Below are positions 746-33,124 of a DNA stretch of 64,000 nucleotides, in pieces (position 1 is the stretch's first letter; every line of letters starts with the position of its first letter). The stretch comes from Octopus vulgaris (lineage: Eukaryota): contig OX597825.1 in assembly GCA_951406725.2 (NCBI GenBank), positions 65,100,001 through 65,164,000 on the forward strand, read 5' to 3'. Under the pieces are notes generated by a model that worked only from the letters and a program-made list of their open reading frames with translations, had not been told where the DNA came from and ran no database searches. A program made the position numbers and the translations under genes.

Positions 746-826
746 ATATGTATGTATATATATGTATATATGTATATGTGCCTATCCAAATGTACATACA
801 AACACACACATATGTATGTATGTAGG

Positions 827-864
<38 letters not shown>

Positions 865-865
865 T

Positions 866-1224
866 AGTCGCAGGAGTGGCTGTGTGGTAAGTGGCGTGCT
901 TACCAATCTTCGGCAAGCGTCTTCTACCCTAACCTCTGGCCGACCAAAGCCTTGTGTGTGGATTTGGTACACGGAAACTGAAAGAAGCCCGCCGTATACA
1001 TATATATATATATATATGAGAGGGGGGTCTGTCTGTTACCGGACCATCGCTTGACAACAGATGTCGGCGTGTTTGTGTCCCCATAACTTAGCATTTCCGA
1101 AAGAGAGACCGACAGAATAAGTACTAGGCTTACAAATAATAAGTCCTAGGGTCGATTTGCTCGACTAAAAGTCAATATTCCCGCATGGCCGCAGTCAAAT
1201 GACTGACAAACGAAAGAGTAAAAT
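866..1224 (+). mobile_element. SINE family A, with a deletion in the head
   Basis: GCAGGAGTGGCTGTGTGGTAAG head, GGATTTGGTACACGGAAACTGAAAGAAGCCC and 3' CATGGCCGCAGTCAAATGACTG match the 335-745 copy in the opposite orientation. Confidence 0.8.
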
Positions 1225-1692
1225 TGAATATATATACATATATGTATATATATATGTATATGTATATATGAATATAGATAGACAGATACGTTAATACATA
1301 CATATATAATTACACGGTATGCAAGTGTATATTGAGCAAATCACCAACTAAAGTATAAGGTCATCAAAGGAGAGAGATGAACTAAAAATAACTTTAGATT
1401 ATGAAATATCAAAGTAGCAAACACGTGAGAGAGAGAGAGAGAGAGAGTATGTGTGCGTGTGTGTGTGTGTATACATACGCCCACACATACACCCTCATGC
1501 ATAGGCGAGCTGTACTTATACATAACAGTTTCTCTATTGCTATGCGCCATATCTTTTGTATTTTCTTATAATAAATTCAGCTCGTCCGTATGATGTCGAT
1601 TCTGTTTGTGTTTGTTAACGCCCACTAACTTATACAGAACAAGAGATGATTATCAGAATCATACATGCATATGTATATTCATATGGATATAA

Positions 1693-1694
<2 letters not shown>

Positions 1695-1762
<68 letters not shown>

Positions 1763-1795
1763 AGATAGATAGATGTTTGTAGATAGATAGATCGG

Positions 1796-1839
<44 letters not shown>

Positions 1840-1870
1840 CAGACAGATAAAAAGATAGATAGATATATTA
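1695..1870. repeat. Compound (TA)n/(GATA)n microsatellite
   Basis: Directly visible. Confidence 0.95.
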
Positions 1871-2656
1871 TATATGCGAGCCTTTGTACTTGCTTATACG
1901 TAGATCAATGTGTGCATAAGTGTGATTATATATATATAGATGTATATGCATATAAATGTATGAATACAAATGTGCTTATATGTATGTAAACGCCACACAC
2001 ACACATATGTATGTAAACACATACATATATACACACTCTCACACATGACACACACACACATAAATTTACCTAAACATATGCATTATAGCGATTTTATATG
2101 TATTCTATATTTCCTTTGTAACGTAAGCTTTGTCATCACTAACTACACCGGCGCCACTATACAACCACAACCAACACCACCAAAAATCTACTAAGACACA
2201 TACAACCCTCTGAAGCGACAGCTTACCCAGTTCTTCATCTGTCAATTCTCAACAGCCCCACAGCCTAATAAACTTCAACACCTTCAACTAACAGCCGCAA
2301 ACCTCCTCTGACTAGTAGCTTTCAACCCTATCTCCGTATGATTTCATAATTTGAGAAGGTATATTTAGTAGGAGTCCATGTAGGTAAAGCTGTTTCACTG
2401 CTGAGAGAAGAGGTTCTCCATCCTATGTAACCGACATCTTGTCATGGTCTTTACTGAGAGTTTATTAACAAAAACATAAACACAATCTCGAATCCAGCTT
2501 CTCTATCGCAGCTCATAGGGCTAAATAAACATCTAACTATATTAACACAACGATTTTGGGATGCATGAGTGTTTATGTGTGACTATGAAGGAAGTACGTT
2601 TCCTTGTGTGTTTGTATCCGCTTATTGGTGAGTGAGTCTATAATCGTGTACATTTC

Positions 2657-2674
2657 TGTGTGTGTATGTGTGTG

Positions 2675-2734
<60 letters not shown>

Positions 2735-2758
2735 TGTGTGAGAGAGAGAGAGAGAGAC
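2657..2758. repeat. (TG)n/(GA)n microsatellite
   Basis: Directly visible. Confidence 0.95.
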
Positions 2759-3415
2759 GTTGAATGAATGAAAGTTTGTGTATTTTTGTTTGGTCTTCAT
2801 TTCGTGTATATTCCCAGGGTGCGGTTTATGAATATATGAAAGTCGATATGTATGTGTGTATGTCAGTTTATGTGTGTGTGTGTGTTTGTGAGTGCCTGTG
2901 CATGTTTGTGAATGAATGTGTGTGGGCTAGTGTGTTTGTGTGTGCGTGTGTGTGTGTGTCAGTTTCAAAGAGAAAGGGAGATGGAAAGAGAGAGAAAGAA
3001 AGAAAGTGCATTTCAATCTCTACAGATATACAGCCTGGTTAACGGTTATATCATTCTTGAAAGCCTGTATCTGTGTAGGCAAATATCCATGTGCGTGTGT
3101 GGTTGCGTGTATGAATCAGCGTGTAAATTGTGTGTAAATGTGTGTGTGTTTGTGAGTAAATGTGTGTATTTGTTTTTGCCTGTGTACGTGCGCCTTTGTG
3201 TGGGTGTTGGCTTTTGTGTTTGAGTACATACAAGAACATCTGACCTCGAATACCTCGAATTATGTGTGTACCATGTGTACGCGCCTAACTGTGCACGTAT
3301 GTGTGTGATTGTTTATATTTTACCAGTACATGAGCTACTGGCATGTACCTCTGCACAATCACAACGCAGACACACACATATACATATATGTTTGTATGTG
3401 TGTGCGTACGTATAT

Positions 3416-3492
<77 letters not shown>

Positions 3493-4239
3493 ATGTATGT
3501 ATGTATATATACATGTAGATATATATTTATGTATGTGTATATATATATATGTATATATGTATGTATATAAGGTTTGTTCGTGCGCGAATGTTCAGAGTGA
3601 GTTCGTGTTCAACTGATGCTTAAGCCTCCAGGTCGACCGTGATAAAGGAGACAGTAATCAGAATCTCTGCAAAGATGGAATCGCTGTCGTCTTTTTACTG
3701 ATATAGCGTATCTGAAATATTAGCAGATTACTTTATATACTGTCTGTATACACTTCAGAATAGCGGATTCGATTATATTTCGGTTGTGACACGAATACGC
3801 AAAATTACTAAGCTGTAACTACGGTGAAATGCATATCTGTCGCCCGCATAACAACCTCTTGGACCATTTCGTTTCGCCTAGCTTTGAAGGACATTGTATT
3901 TCCTAACACTGGATGTATTTAAATGGATCGTTCCCAGGCGAAACCACAATTTATAGTGCGGTAAGAATGTTGTATTCATAGAATTCTTATTATAGTGTTA
4001 ATTTTGTTGTATAATTCGCTATATATAAGCTATATATCCCAAAATCGTGAATCATGTTACGTAATAACAGGCTAATCAGATATGAAATAATAACAATTCA
4101 TAGTAAATAACTCTGAAAAGGGCTTTTGTGCGTTTCCAGAGAATAGTGTTGGTATATTCCTGAATAGGTCATTAAGCGAAATAAGTTTAAATACTATGAA
4201 ACAAGCATACTCAATTTCATTTTTACCAAATAATTTAGG

Positions 4240-25910: not shown

Positions 25911-26360
25911 AAATATTGAATTTAGACATGCAGAGAAAATAAGCTACATAGAACTAGATGCTTTGTGCTAAAGTTGGATTCAATAAGGAGTAAAGATATG
26001 CCTAGGAAAGACTTCAGTTGTCTTGAAGTAAGGATTGGTAGTTTGTAACTAAAGCACTAGTGTCTTAAGGAGATCTTGAGCTAACTTTGCTCATCATTCT
26101 TTGGAGGTCGAATAAATAAAGTACCAGTCGAGAAAATATTGAATTTAGACATGCAGAGAAAATAAGCTACATAGAATTAGATGCTTGGTGCTAAAGTTGG
26201 ATTCAATAAGGATTAAAGATATGCCTAGGAAAGACTTCAGTTGTCTTGAAGTAAGGATTGGTAGTTTGTAACTAAAGCACTAGTGTCTTAAGGAGATCTT
26301 GAGCTAACTTTGCACATTATTCTTTGGAGTTCGAATAAATAAAGTACCAGTCGAGAAAAT
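25911..26360. repeat. Recent tandem duplication, 2 x 223 bp
   Basis: AAATATTGAATTTAGACATGCAG... starts at 25911 and 26134; copies differ by a few substitutions. Confidence 0.95.
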
Positions 26361-26966: not shown

Positions 26967-28633
26967 TTCTGTTATGAGAGACGTGGATTTATTAGTTAGA
27001 AAATTTTTTTTTGTTTAAATTACATATGATCTTACGTTTCGAACTGTTTACTGCTTATTGCTTGTATCATGGTTTACATTATATAAAAACTTGTTGGTAC
27101 GTTGAATATGTTTGAAGCCTTAATTTCTTTGTATCGAAGCATGACGGGATATTTCCTTCTCTTCCGTTCAAAATTCAAATAAATTTCAGCACTGCTAAGT
27201 TGTAGTGGTGGTAGTGGTAATTGAGATAGTATGAGATGTAGTAGCGTTACCAAGAGTTGTGGGTGACGCGTTATCTGCCGTCGCGTAACTCTTGGTCCCA
27301 ACAGACAACATCGAAAAGGCGTTGACCCGGAGGATGGCGATAGAGATTGCTTTTGTGCAGTGTCATCTCCGCCCCGATGGCTGTGATTAGAGATATGGTC
27401 AGGGGGTCCGAGAACCCTGGGGGTCTCCACTGCTGGAGGCTCGACCCATAAGCCTGTCAGAGAGTGACCGGTACCTTAATAGTTTGCTTTTCTAAGCCTG
27501 ACGAACAGCGATACCTGGGCTGGTAGCTGAACATAGCAAGTTCCTGCTGGAGAAGGTATCACAGCATGTGGAACCCCAGGTGAGATGTCCTACCGCCACG
27601 GAACGAGAAAAGTTTTATACCGCCAGGTTTTTTACCGTTCCCTCGGAACAGCCCCGCGGGCTGGACCTCGGAAGGGAAGCCTGTGGTATCTGTCTAGGCA
27701 ATGCTTTTTCGTTGAGGGCAACATGGCGTGGAAGGTGGTCAGAAGGAAGGTGGTCAGTACTGTAATGGTATGACAATCGGTGGAGGTCGAAAGAATCTAC
27801 AGTGGATCAACAGCGACATTTGTGAGGTTTACAGATCTAGAGATCTAATCAGATAGATTAAAAATCGTGTCTTTTAAAGTCGCGCATATTTAAACAATGC
27901 CACCACGGTCATTATATCGTTTTGAAATTTTCAGCAATACAACACTTTATGGTAGTGTTTACTTTACTTATCGTTTAAAAACCAAGTGCATTCACGTAGT
28001 AATGTTAGCAATAACAGCAGTAGTAGTTACTGGTGTTGCGATATATGTTACAAATAAATTTATATGTAGGATATGTGTAACGTATCTATGACACTGTTTA
28101 TCGTCTATAATTTCATTAGTGTGAAACTCTAATGTCCATATATGTTAAACTGTTTAACAAATAACATAAACACTAAAATAATAAAAAAGAAACAAATAAA
28201 AACAAATCATGTCACAACATATTCATTTCATAAAGTATTCTTGTAAACAGAACTGCCTTTTAATCCGTTCAGATACTGAAAACGCATAGTGATTCGTTAA
28301 AATGTGATATATTTTAGTCTGAAATTACTCTCTATAGAGCTAGATATTTAGTTGACATGTATGAGGAAGAAACATTCGGGATAATTAAACAAACCATTAT
28401 CGTAGAAATAAGATAGATGGCACGTCTGACTGGGAATATCGTCATATTTCATTAGAAGAAAATAATTATCTGATTTTTTTTTCCTTTTTTATACTAAGCT
28501 TGCTGGAAAATAAATAGATGTAGGTCAACAGAATTAATGCTGTTCGATATTGATATATGAATCTAGAATATGCAAATATAAATAGCATATTTATATGCTA
28601 TTGTTGTGAGATTACAATGTTAATTACAACAAC

Positions 28634-28636
<3 letters not shown>

Positions 28637-28691
<55 letters not shown>

Positions 28692-29232
28692 CGTTTATTT
28701 ATTGGCCACTAGGGCCGAATACAAAACAGGAAGGAACAATACAAAACAAGGGATGATTGAGGCTTAGCAAAAATTTCGTGTATACTATAAAAACAAGACC
28801 AACTCACAATAAGAATTCAACTATAAAATTCCCCAAAAGTGGGTCAGTTCCAATCAGAGACAGCCAAGGAACCCTACACATCCTGGTGACCCACAACAAC
28901 CAAGGCAACCTCAGCAAGCACTTCTCTTCTCAATTCCATCCGGATTACAAGCGTTTGTTCAGTTTCGGCCAATTCATAGAGGTCATCAGCTTTCAACAAA
29001 AATACGTTTCGAAGGGCAGCACTTCCCTTTCCACTCATACTTTCCTTTTTCAAGTTAAACATGAGAAAGTCGATCAGGGCTTGGCCGAACAGGATGTATT
29101 TGTCTTCAAGAGTGCCCAACCTCGCCCACCACTCTACCTTTTTCTCCACAGCCACCAGACTGAAGAGAACTGCCTTCCCTTCCAGGTCAAAAGCAGGTGG
29201 CGGGAAAATCCTTATGATGGACTCGGTTGATA
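28637..29232 (-). mobile_element. 5'-truncated Tx1/L1-clade LINE 3' end with (TTA)n tail
   Basis: Minus strand STESIIRIFPPPAFDLEGKAVLFSLVAVEKKVEWWARLGTLEDKYILFGQALIDFLMFNLK(fs)RKV*VEREVL resembles the Tx1/L1 ORF2 C-terminus. Then a 3' UTR, AATAAA and (TTA)n. Confidence 0.6.
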
Positions 29233-29568
29233 TACAAATACACGTCTAAAAATGTATTTTAATTGGTAATTAGGCAGTATGTTACATATCCCAGGGCCCC
29301 AATAATTGCAGTTATAAAATTGAACCTGTAATCTGGATAGAGTGCAAATTTCTCAATAGATCAGCGTAGGTATTCTCTTTTTCACTGATCTTCAAATTTA
29401 TATTACGTATGTATGTAAGAATTATATATATATATATATATATATATTAACAATTAAGGAACGGCCATAATAGGCCATTCACCCACTAGAAATAACAGCC
29501 AAAGCTTCTACCGCAAATAAAGATCAATTCCGTAAACAGGAGAAAATTAAAAAAACATTTACCCTGTA

Positions 29569-29675
29569 ATTTCTTGTACGGTATACCGTTTCATCTGCTG
29601 TTTAATGGTAAACTAACCTGATTAAATTAAATCAAGCCAATCTTCCATAAGCCCTCAGATTCTTCAGCAAGAAAT
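29569..29675 (-). ncRNA. Type I hammerhead ribozyme, copy 1
   Basis: Minus strand AUUUCUUG-CUGAAGA-AUCUG-(58-nt extension)-CAGAU-GAAAC-GGUAUACC-GUA^CAAGAAAU. Intact core, 8-bp stem I, 5-bp stem II, palindromic stem III. Predicted cut between 29577 and 29576. Confidence 0.9.
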
Positions 29676-30053
29676 AGCTCAAGTCGGAACAGATATTTAC
29701 ACGAGGCATACCCAATCCTGCCAAGGCAATATCTGACCTAAAATTTTCAAATCGTCGCACTCGCGCCAAATTTATCGGCAGCAAATAAATCGTCGATTCC
29801 ATTACGGAATTAACCAAAAAATTCATAATTAATCAATATAGGGTGGCAAGGAAAATTTTGTAGAATTTTTTTGCCACCAGCGGCCCAGTGGGAAAAAATT
29901 AAATAGTCATAGACCATTTTTAAGTTCAACATTAACAATTAAGGAACGGCCATAATAGGCCATTCACCCACTAGAAATAACAGCCAAAGCTTCTACCGCA
30001 AATAAAGATCAATTCCGTAAACAGGAGAAAATTAAAAAAACATTTACCCTGTA

Positions 30054-30160
30054 ATTTCTTGTACGGTATACCGTTTCATCTGCTGTTTAATGGTAAACTA
30101 ACCTGATTAAATTAAATCAAGCCAATCTTCCATAAGCCCTCAGATTCTTCAGCAAGAAAT
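30054..30160 (-). ncRNA. Type I hammerhead ribozyme, copy 2
   Basis: Identical to 29569-29675 shifted by 485 nt. Predicted cut between 30062 and 30061. Confidence 0.9.
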
Positions 30161-30332
30161 AGCTCAAGTCGGAACAGATATTTACACGAGGCATACCCAA
30201 TCCTGCCAAGGCAATATCTGACCTAAAATTTTCAAATCGTCGCACTCGCGCCAAATTTATCGGCAGCAAATAAATCGTCGATTCCATTACGGAATTAACC
30301 AAAAAATTCATATATTGATTAATTAAAAATAA

Positions 30333-30410
<78 letters not shown>

Positions 30411-30429
30411 TTATGTATGTATGTAAAGA

Positions 30430-30660
30430 AATGGGGGAGGCTCTTTCTATCTGTGTTTGTCCCCCACCTCAATTACCTCTTGACAACCGTTGCTGGTGTG
30501 TTTACATCCCTGTAACCTAGCACGTCGGCAAAAGAATACAGTAGAATAAATGTCAGTTTTAAGAAAAAAAATTGCTGGGGCCCATACATTCGACAAAAAA
30601 TTGCTCAAGGCGCTGCCCCAGTATGGCTCCAGTATAATGAGTGAAACGAGTAAAAGATAT
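30430..30660 (+). mobile_element. SINE family A, 3' half, degenerate
   Basis: TTGACAACCGTTGCTGGTGTGTTTACATCCCTGTAAC...GAAACGAGTAAAAGA. Confidence 0.65.
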
Positions 30661-31161
30661 AGATATCAAGTGGAAGACCGCTGAACGTATTTACTTCTTG
30701 TTCAAATGACCACAGACGAGATACACTCTGTCTTACTCTGCAAGAGATTTGCTTGTTTGTAGTATACTCAGCCACTTCTACATTAATTCTATCAAGCCAG
30801 ATGAAACTGCTTTAGAAATTTGGTGATCGGAATTCCAACCAAAATACATTATATAATCTGCAGAATATCTCTGATGCTATATTTTTTGCGTTTGTACGCA
30901 AAATCGTCGTGGCTATGTGGTAGGAAGTTTGGTTCACAATCACATAGTTCACAGGTTCATGCCTACGGCATGGCACCTACGCAATATATCTTATAACCTT
31001 GGGCTGATTAGACGGTTCTGGGTGGATTTGGTAGAGAGAAACTGATAGAAACCCATCAATTATATACATACATACCTAAAAAATAAATGCATACATACCC
31101 GCATGTGTGCGTCTTTTTTTTTGTCTTTCTTCCCACCACCGCTTGACCAGCAGTGTTGGTA

Positions 31162-31465
31162 TTCTTTTACTTGTTCCAGTCATTTGACTGCGGCCATGCT
31201 GAAGCAGCGCCTTTATTCGAACAAATCGACCCCAGGATTTATTCTTTGTAAGCCTCGTACTAATTATATCATTCTCTTTTGCCGAACCGCTACGTTACGT
31301 GTACGTAAACACACCAACATCGGTTACCAAGCGATGGTGGGGATACAAACAAAGACATAAATACACACACACTTGTATATGTAAGACGGGCTTCTTTCAG
31401 TTTCCGTCTACCAAATGCACTCAGAAGGCTTTGGTCGACCCGAGGCTATATTAGAAGACACTTGC
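31162..31465 (-). mobile_element. SINE family A, lacking head
   Basis: CAGTCATTTGACTGCGGCCATGCT...CTTCTTTCAGTTTCCGTCTACCAAAT, as in 335-745. Confidence 0.8.
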
Positions 31466-31546
31466 GGAAGATGCTACGCAAGATGTGTAATTACATATAT
31501 ATGTGTGTGTAAATGTGTAAATGAACACAACGGTTGGTTAGGTGTA

Positions 31547-31604
<58 letters not shown>

Positions 31605-31795
31605 TATATACATACATGCATACACACATACATGCATGCATACATACATAAACGTCAATGTGTTTATGTGTTTGCATAAACATGTGTGATGTATTTATCT
31701 TTGTAAGGAGAAGCAGTTACATCTACTTTAATTCGAATCCACCATTCTAAGATCTACTAACCTTAAGTACATATATATACATATATATATACACG

Positions 31796-31855
<60 letters not shown>

Positions 31856-33124
31856 TAATGTATCCGGTACTACTCTTTTCTTTTGTTTTAGCAACACATT
31901 GATTAGCTGTAAGTATCTCTGCTCAGCTATGAGGAAAATCGTTGCTTGTTCCTTTCTTGTTCCAGTTATATTATACTGTACAGTATAATTGATTAACCAT
32001 ACTAAGATCATATATACCGATTTGATTGAATTAGCCAATTAAACTTGAATTTGATACACTGATTTCATTAAGTAAATCAATTAATTAATCTTGGATTGGT
32101 TATATTTATTCAATCAAATGAAACAACACTGAACTCGATAAATAGATTTTGTCAAAGTTATCGATTAACCTCAAACCTGATTTCATTTAAGTAATCAACT
32201 AATTAATTGAGGAAATCTCACAATAGGTTTGGTCATGTAATCAACTTTACTTAACAAAATAACGACAGAGAGAGAGAGAGCGAGAGAGACAGAGATGGGT
32301 GTAAGTATTAGAAAGAGAGAAAGAGAAGAGAAAGTTCGGAACAGTGAGAATAAGTGGAGGGGTATGGAGAGGTAGCAAGAAAGTTAGAGAGAGAGGGAGA
32401 GAGAGAAAGAAAGAGAGATGAGTACCTCCACGTAGTTTTTCGATTCTGGTAAACGACAGCTAAGTACTGCATATCGATAGGAGTAGCTCACTTGGTTTCG
32501 TTTCTCAAGTATCTGCAAATATATATTAACAGATTCACAACTAAATCAAATTGATAGTCTATAATATACGATGCTGTCTATCTACATCAACGCCTCGCAA
32601 AGTGTGAGATATTTAACACAATTCCCAAAAGTATTGTGGGTGGATTTGGTAGACGGAAACTAAAGGAAACCCGCTGTGCGAGTAAATAAGGAAAGGTATT
32701 ACAGAATTATTTTCTTCTATATATGAATTTCAGAATAATCGCTTTCTTTACTATTTCATTCTGTTTATTTTTCACGATATTGTCTCCATTATGGTGTTGT
32801 TATGAGGTCAGACTATAGTAGTTTTTTGTATCACATAGGTAAATGAATACGTTTCCTTTCTTGTTCCGTTATCTGTCACACATATACATACCTATTTTAT
32901 AACAGGTTTCAATTCAACGTCTTAACAATGTATATGTAGATATATACGAAAATACAGATCATGTCTAATAACAATAGACCTCTTTGTCTCTCTCCCCTCT
33001 CTTACACATACACATTCTCACGCACGTGCACACTCATATATAGGTATATATGTACATGCAAATATATATATATATGTGTGTGTGTGTCTGTGTGTGTGTG
33101 TGTGTGAGTGCGTGTGTGTGTATG

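Follow-up and report, generated by a model that had tools for sequence, protein, structure and literature searches.

How a 485-nt sequence came to stand nearly twice in a row within a (TA)n tract, and by what means it was put there, is the question raised by one locus in the 64,000-nt stretch of Octopus vulgaris DNA analysed in this work (the window). An earlier sequence-only reading saw in it two identical 382-bp repeats at a 485-nt period, and took them for a candidate retrozyme. Self-comparison of the window finds the match to be exact over these 382 bp (29446-29827 = 29931-30312, period 485), and the two predicted cuts do enclose a monomer of 485 nt, as was claimed (29577-30061, minus strand, 36% GC, or 0.363). 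We number the unit of 485 nt along the hammerhead strand (the minus strand of the window), position 1 being the first base past the predicted GUA cut. Numbered in this way, the repeat is a long arm of 867 nt or 1.79 units (29446-30312, RNA sense on the minus strand), with its 3′ end at a site P, 131 nt past the cut, and its 5′ end at unit position 235. The short inverted second arm of 13 nt that follows it (30313-30325, plus strand; unit positions 224-236, with an 11-nt exact inversion), and which ends at a second site D, had been overlooked. The layout of about 1.8 units is one arm of a two-armed insertion, in which the P arm measures 867 nt and the D arm 13 nt. The putative proximal reverse-transcription start site P lies at 29446-29453 (minus strand, unit position about 131) and an internal copy of the putative distal start site D at 29825-29841 (minus strand, unit position about 232-237); the part of the unit present only once in the window (29828-29930, minus strand) forms, with the P and D sites, a 106-nt ‘tail’ in the sense used for Penelope-type elements (PMC8557442, PMC11167929). 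Target sequence of (TA)n type flanks the whole on the left (29423-29445) and on the right (30329-30422), and the ends of the element are (TA)n-flanked tandem arms, not LTRs. That reverse transcriptase and endonuclease coding is absent, as first noted, is borne out by a longest stop-free frame of 66 codons within the unit, a frame treated as chance.

The hammerheads themselves, both of type I and on the minus strand, are as complete as they had been said to be. The upstream copy (30054-30160) has its core CUGAAGA at 30152 and its predicted cut at 30062/30061, the downstream copy (29569-29675) its core CUGAAGA at 29667 and its predicted cut at 29577/29576, and each has an 8-bp stem I (AUUUCUUG/CAAGAAAU), CUGAAGA, GAAAC, stem III and GUA. 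Helix II is an extended domain of 68 nt and stem III a palindrome of 12 nt. Alone, the 107-nt motif folds as a hammerhead at -33.8 kcal/mol, and the monomer 29577-30061 folded as a circle reaches -146 kcal/mol, against -106.7 +/- 4.7 for 30 shuffles. Folding of the whole unit (ViennaRNA), however, gives stem I a probability of only 0-5%, with a rival hairpin competing, so that cleavage in cis may be slow. The search with curated hammerhead models, proposed together with the first reading, recognised none: no hammerhead is found among the 34 Rfam matches at E<=10 for window positions 27000-33000, which the long helix II probably explains. In 15 distinct hammerhead copies, picked by hand from 28, standard pairs fill 99.4% of the paired cells, the core is invariant apart from N7 and N17, and four pairs, in stems I and II, are changed on both sides across subfamilies. 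The covariation score is reached by none of 500 shuffles and the count of four pairs by 24 of 500; since the copies are related, this is support and not proof.

The locus is one of many. In the genome searched (2.8 Gb, 227 contigs), the unit gives 266 matches from the best 40 of 1,334 candidates, many of them identical and tandem, on many contigs. A 25-nt word taken from the hammerhead of the youngest group has 209 exact genomic copies and its reversed control none, hence the word does not recur by chance. On one strand the junction of TA with site D is counted 590 times, which points to about 1,200 insertions, and all 20 stretches sampled at such junctions match the unit (the long matches at 86-96%, and one match covering just 37 nt). 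Unit length across the family is 485-493 nt, arms extend to 14.4 units, and arrays of up to 8 units identical to that of the window stand at more than 12 unlinked loci. Both the dispersed family that the first reading anticipated (about 1,200 insertions on many contigs) and the retrozyme identity it proposed are upheld, the latter by a hammerhead in every tandem unit, low GC, lack of coding and dispersal. The window copy is thus a member of a young, dispersed, non-coding family, a non-LTR retrozyme of known kind. The family may be present unnamed in Repbase, Dfam or the supplements of PMC13282606 and PMC8557442; no report of a cephalopod retrozyme was found in the literature searched, with subscription papers mostly outside it.

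The anatomy of insertion was read from 79 insertions mapped in 75 loci, of which 73 were scored (a duplicate, an edge-cut copy, an old copy at 70% and three compound or degenerate ones were left out; the short second arms of the window, L050, L064, L076 and L090 were entered by eye). Two arms pointing outwards, with the tail out, make up 56 of the 73, and as many consist of a partial tandem and an inverted 5′-truncated copy; this two-armed anatomy with a one-sided tail is a known signature of Penelope-like elements (PLEs), here with a tail of 106 nt. The remaining 17 have one arm (12 D, 5 P). What the two arms do not do is end alike: 53 of the 56 pair one P end (121-137) with one D end (228-243), three pair D with another position, and P with P or D with D never occurs. 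The 3′ ends of arms lie at 121-136 in 58 of 129 (exactly 131 in 33) and at 230-241 in 68 of 129 (exactly 237 in 43, with 17 insertions picked by D junction); selection of the older set (L085-L104) by the D junction skews these overall totals, though not the pairing, which holds in 36 of 39 two-armed insertions of the set not picked by an end. Permuted start points, which had been expected of other copies, are not what the mapped copies have, their 3′ ends being fixed at two sites. The outer ends lie within 22 nt of (TA)4 or longer in 145 of 152 cases. Where the arms meet, fold-backs within 20 nt are found at 12 of 56 junctions against 4.7 expected, and at nine of these 12 the arm lengths differ by 97-110 nt, as if both reverse transcriptions had started from one unit or RNA; in the fold-backs of the window and L051 the meeting point has the same unit position and the lengths differ by whole laps. 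Arms that end beside D, at unit positions 222-239, after whole laps are seen in L051, L061, L087, L096, L100 and the window.

The same rule is obeyed by an autonomous element of this genome. Octopus vulgaris holds 31 recently active Penelope-like families according to PMC13282606, and here the family of L135 (G000:C1:119513000-119522900; members L105-L150) has an intact 899-codon RT/GIY-YIG frame of Hydra-type Penelope in tandem units of 3,625 bp. It is very young, its endonuclease giving 150 scored matches at 98-100%. Its targets are (TA)n, its fixed ends lie 67 and about 225 nt past its own hammerhead cut, about 160 nt apart, with the hammerhead in the 5′ region, and of the two-armed copies that show both their ends, all 22 have unlike ones, some of these copies having been selected for two opposed matches and not for end type. 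Ends at the hammerhead site number 3 of 44, too few for a test of excess. Its hammerhead shares with that of the retrozyme the long helix II and the palindromic form of stem III. Read by eye, the frame has DKT, an RW motif and a C-terminal EN with CxxC and CxH and no CCHH, in line with the criteria for the Hydra clade in PMC8557442; a CxCX5C linker was not seen by eye in it, and Pfam gives no match for it. By these motifs, the hammerhead and the (TA)n target, L135 appears to fit the Hydra clade. Long-helix-II hammerheads are carried, by eye, by four to five further Hydra-type families; among the open-frame Hydra-type elements L152, L153, L154, L155, L157 and L159 the hammerheads have a long helix II and a 4-nt stem III loop region, and one has the core CCGAAGA. 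Even so, the 485-nt unit has no significant similarity to the full L135 unit or to 14-15 Hydra-type stretches upstream of the ORF (several of them 5′-truncated and without pLTR); the best match, which seems to have the wrong orientation, covers 27 nt at 85% (E 0.001), and the others are short and at motif level. A Hydra-type partner is therefore a proposal. Short likenesses between unit and Hydra-type element, UAAUGUU and CUAU-N6-UAAU, can be picked out by eye at the two start sites. Neptune-like Penelope fragments lie 0.4-2 kb from the insertions L063, L068, L069, L074 and L082, probably owing to shared (TA)n targeting. The Penelope-type mobilisation put forward earlier is supported by the end rule in the retrozyme, the (TA)n targets and the same rule in L135, and we regard the class of non-LTR retrozyme and this mode of mobilisation, taken jointly, as very likely correct.

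The best explanation as a whole, which we hold to be reasonably probable, is that a non-LTR retrozyme is moved in trans and primed at two sites on one RNA. Built on the observed anatomy, end rule, haplotype sharing, covariation and 5′ end excess, the scheme would run as follows. A Penelope-like RT/GIY-YIG protein, which most likely belongs to the Hydra clade, would act in trans on a non-autonomous retroelement. Arrays of this retroelement would give transcripts of hammerhead sense, and these would be cleaved at GUA, though probably not to completion. The protein, probably as a dimer, would cut both strands of a (TA)n tract, and one DNA end would prime at P (+131), the other at D (+237), on the same RNA, as the end rule suggests. 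Each reverse transcription would run for anything from a few bases to 14 units, precisely across the cut site, and the two cDNAs would be joined head to head. The strict rule of unlike ends predicts one start site per strand, and the sharing of haplotypes one RNA per insertion. Much of this has a parallel in the Poseidon element PAc of the anole (Frangieh et al. 2024, PMC11167929), where two RT start sites downstream of the hammerhead define the tail, as here, and where a protein predicted to be a dimer starts at these two internal sites and cuts and extends both strands in vitro, which matches the scheme; the inverted product and the circular template are not examined in the available text of that work. 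Against the scheme, the same study reports no difference in start site between strands, and a hammerhead dispensable in vitro with no reads ending at the cut. The domain of P and D, too, counts against it, as none of its 58 pairs changes on both sides (RNAalifold), and so do the low probability predicted for stem I in the full unit and the lack of real similarity between the unit and the Penelope stretches compared with it. A use of the two PLE start sites that differs by strand was not met with in the literature searched, most subscription papers lying outside.

What was read is a separate matter. A comparison of haplotypes covering 197 of the 209 exact copies of the young hammerhead finds that all laps of both arms are usually of one haplotype, private SNPs included. 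Among copies that agree at 96% or better, the variant sites with at least three passes comprise 54 that are fixed in all laps, 35 that are single and four intermediate ones; private SNPs are fixed over laps and arms in L053 (8/8), L045 (5/5), L049 (4/4 and 5/5) and L060 (3/3). The junction at the cut site is intact in 224 of 229 passes, subfamily variants aside. Such single-haplotype arrays of many laps favour repeated copying of one monomer. Exceptions are L059, mosaic for two SNPs (9/16 and 11/15), L068 with one deviant unit, and L048 with a 16-nt duplication repeated in two units, and each could go back to gene conversion, to a source of mixed origin or to an error of polishing. L059 (1037-9368) is also the longest array, with 14.4 units in one arm and its two mosaic SNPs in all four combinations, and a second, older insertion begins 290 bp further on. 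In L046, L048 and L035 the lengths of A- and U-tracts and short duplications vary between laps, which slippage of the RT or errors in long reads would lead one to expect.

The 5′ ends of arms tell a less simple story. Those at positions 1-40 past the cut number 32 of 128 against 11.6 expected (p 1e-7), with no excess in the 40 nt before the cut (9 of 128 against 10.6), and they are found both in the older set (11 of 39 against 3.8) and in the young one (21 of 89 against 8.0). Of arms longer than one unit, 19 of 68 end in these 40 nt, and the rate of stopping there is about 11-12% per approach, be it the first, the second or a later one, against about 4% background. AT content was considered as the cause and set aside, equally AT-rich bins of 20 nt elsewhere not being enriched; the exception is bin 221-240, with 10 ends against 5.4 expected, four very short D arms included. 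A constant stop rate is not predicted by a smoothly read, covalently closed circle, and counts against one. Linear cut ends agree with the excess, as does a circle that is nicked or causes stalling. Such a circle fits the haplotypes and the 5′ ends alike, and circles mixed with partly cut multimers would fit them too.

A serious rival to the circle is accordingly the same element with the same twin priming, in which what is copied is linear RNA, in the form of multimeric array transcripts that have been cut in part, and circles play no role in most insertions. The pile-up of 5′ ends past the cut, lacking before it and equal at each approach, is what such templates would give; the weak stem I would leave multimers uncut, and unprocessed RNA is the main substrate of the anole protein (PMC11167929). 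One arm, in L056, begins exactly at position 1. This insertion is found twice, as L056 and L057 (C30), the two being oppositely oriented and separated by 360 kb, next to a decayed Hydra-type ORF, with the arm beginning exactly at the hammerhead cut and a 29-nt fold-back. Copying of linear multimers can only shorten arrays, however, yet several haplotypes own long arms (to 14.4 units); private SNPs fixed in every lap require a step from monomer to multimer, and apart from T9A and C404T (subfamily) and T231C, no single-unit variant was met again at its position in another array. We judge that linear templates are rather unlikely to account for most insertions, and give slightly better than even chances to a circular monomer, whether closed or kept together despite a nick, as the template read lap after lap. 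Animal retrozymes yield both linear and circular monomers (PMC7229834). A fuller version of the preferred reading, tentative and to us doubtful, is that the family records in the genome how the Penelope mechanism acts on an RNA ring made by a ribozyme: a dimeric RT/endonuclease primes both strands of a (TA)n break at two fixed sites of one RNA, each DNA strand using its own site, and rolls on a monomer ring whose cut ends are held together by a nick or joined by a linkage that causes stalling, falling off at the junction about one lap in 10. If true, this would by itself account for the tail and inverted ends of Penelope insertions as well as for their tandem copies and for what the hammerhead does, and the same genome would hold an intact, young partner for it.

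Sequencing runs bear on the presence of the unit. Fourteen runs from four studies match the stretch, their status as RNA being guessed and none recorded as RNA being listed, and contigs were compared for four of the guessed-RNA runs, all of which contain the unit, as evidence of presence only and not of strand, ends, level or topology. Contigs of run X2 tile the unit with 0 differences at a depth of about 750-3800, the unique flank 29200-29246 having depth 0; the X2 contig over the cut has a depth of 752, against 2127 and 3791 beside it.

The remaining explanations fare worse. One of them, proposed for the Penelope of rotifers, is that one cDNA from one start site primes itself by fold-back, the second arm being a DNA copy of the first. 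Self-priming and palindromic junctions are argued for in PMC3846280, and the fold-backs at 12 of 56 junctions would agree, but the other 44 join positions more than 20 nt apart, and it is left unexplained why the copied arm should stop at the other site (53 of 56 here, and 22 of 22 in the autonomous family). Either arm, moreover, may be the longer, the P arm being so in only 24 of 53 P+D insertions, hence neither is copied from the other, and self-priming seems improbable. Still less credible is that short insertions grew later within the DNA, through slippage or unequal crossover, after the satellite model in 10.64898/2026.07.22.740005: homogeneous arrays are also expected if the growth was recent, and the mosaic L059 could be gene conversion, but private SNPs are common to both inverted arms, arrays of up to 8 units identical to the window unit stand at over a dozen unlinked loci, and array 5′ ends follow the ribozyme cut. 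That these are simply the pLTRs of an autonomous element, as the first reading would have had it if copies were always attached to an RT ORF, or else an assembly artefact, can practically be dismissed, for although 12 of 75 loci have a Penelope-like protein match somewhere, the nearest is 330 bp off and no array adjoins one, the outer ends lie in (TA)n, and contigs of independent runs span the unit junction without difference.

Among the known systems close to the element are the metazoan non-LTR retrozymes of Cervera and de la Pena 2020 (PMC7229834), which have the same type I hammerhead in each non-coding, low-GC tandem unit and a self-paired unit, and for which a circle is likewise proposed as RT template and PLEs as the likely partner. 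Their RNAs are of 170-400 nt and their repeats of 150-450 bp, whereas the octopus unit has 485-493 nt and a 68-nt helix II; the available text of that paper includes no cephalopod, and describes no fixed ends, inverted two-arm structure or haplotypes per insertion. The retrozymes of vertebrates (Li, Clavereau, Pollet 2026, 10.64898/2026.07.22.740005) are non-autonomous PLE derivatives too, traced there to pLTRs, with units of 51-972 bp, a range that includes 485. There the link to PLEs is by co-occurrence and pLTR homology, here by the anatomy of insertions, without homology to a partner; and whereas local DNA amplification is invoked there, the octopus data favour arrays born multi-unit. No mollusc is in its sample, as far as the accessible part goes. 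With the PLEs of the Hydra clade (Craig et al. 2021, PMC8557442) the octopus retrozyme shares (TA)n targets, hammerheads, partial tandems, the inverted 5′-truncated copy and a tail at one end only, a (TA)n microsatellite target being that of Hydra and Naiad. The tails of these elements are of 30-40 bp, against 106 nt in the retrozyme and about 160 nt in the L135 family, and they encode protein where the retrozyme is non-coding.

The element itself is of known kind, and its value is in the mechanism it exposes: it combines an unusual hammerhead with an unusually clean record of Penelope-type insertion. The tails and inverted ends of PLEs, the role of their hammerheads and the use of circles as RT templates are treated as open in PMC8557442, PMC11167929 and 10.64898/2026.07.22.740005. 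An element that is small, young and present in many copies, and whose multi-lap arrays are almost identical, makes these questions directly testable, and an intact young Hydra-type element obeying the same end rule adds to this.

The neighbourhood of the insertion holds other repeated DNA. Positions 30450-30540 of the window are a very high-copy short repeat (contig depth 28,000-88,000), probably a SINE fragment. At 25911-26360 a 223-bp unit stands in two tandem copies, 97% alike, and at 28874-29245, on the minus strand, there is a 123-codon frame with a putative likeness to the C-terminal end of a Tx1-type LINE.
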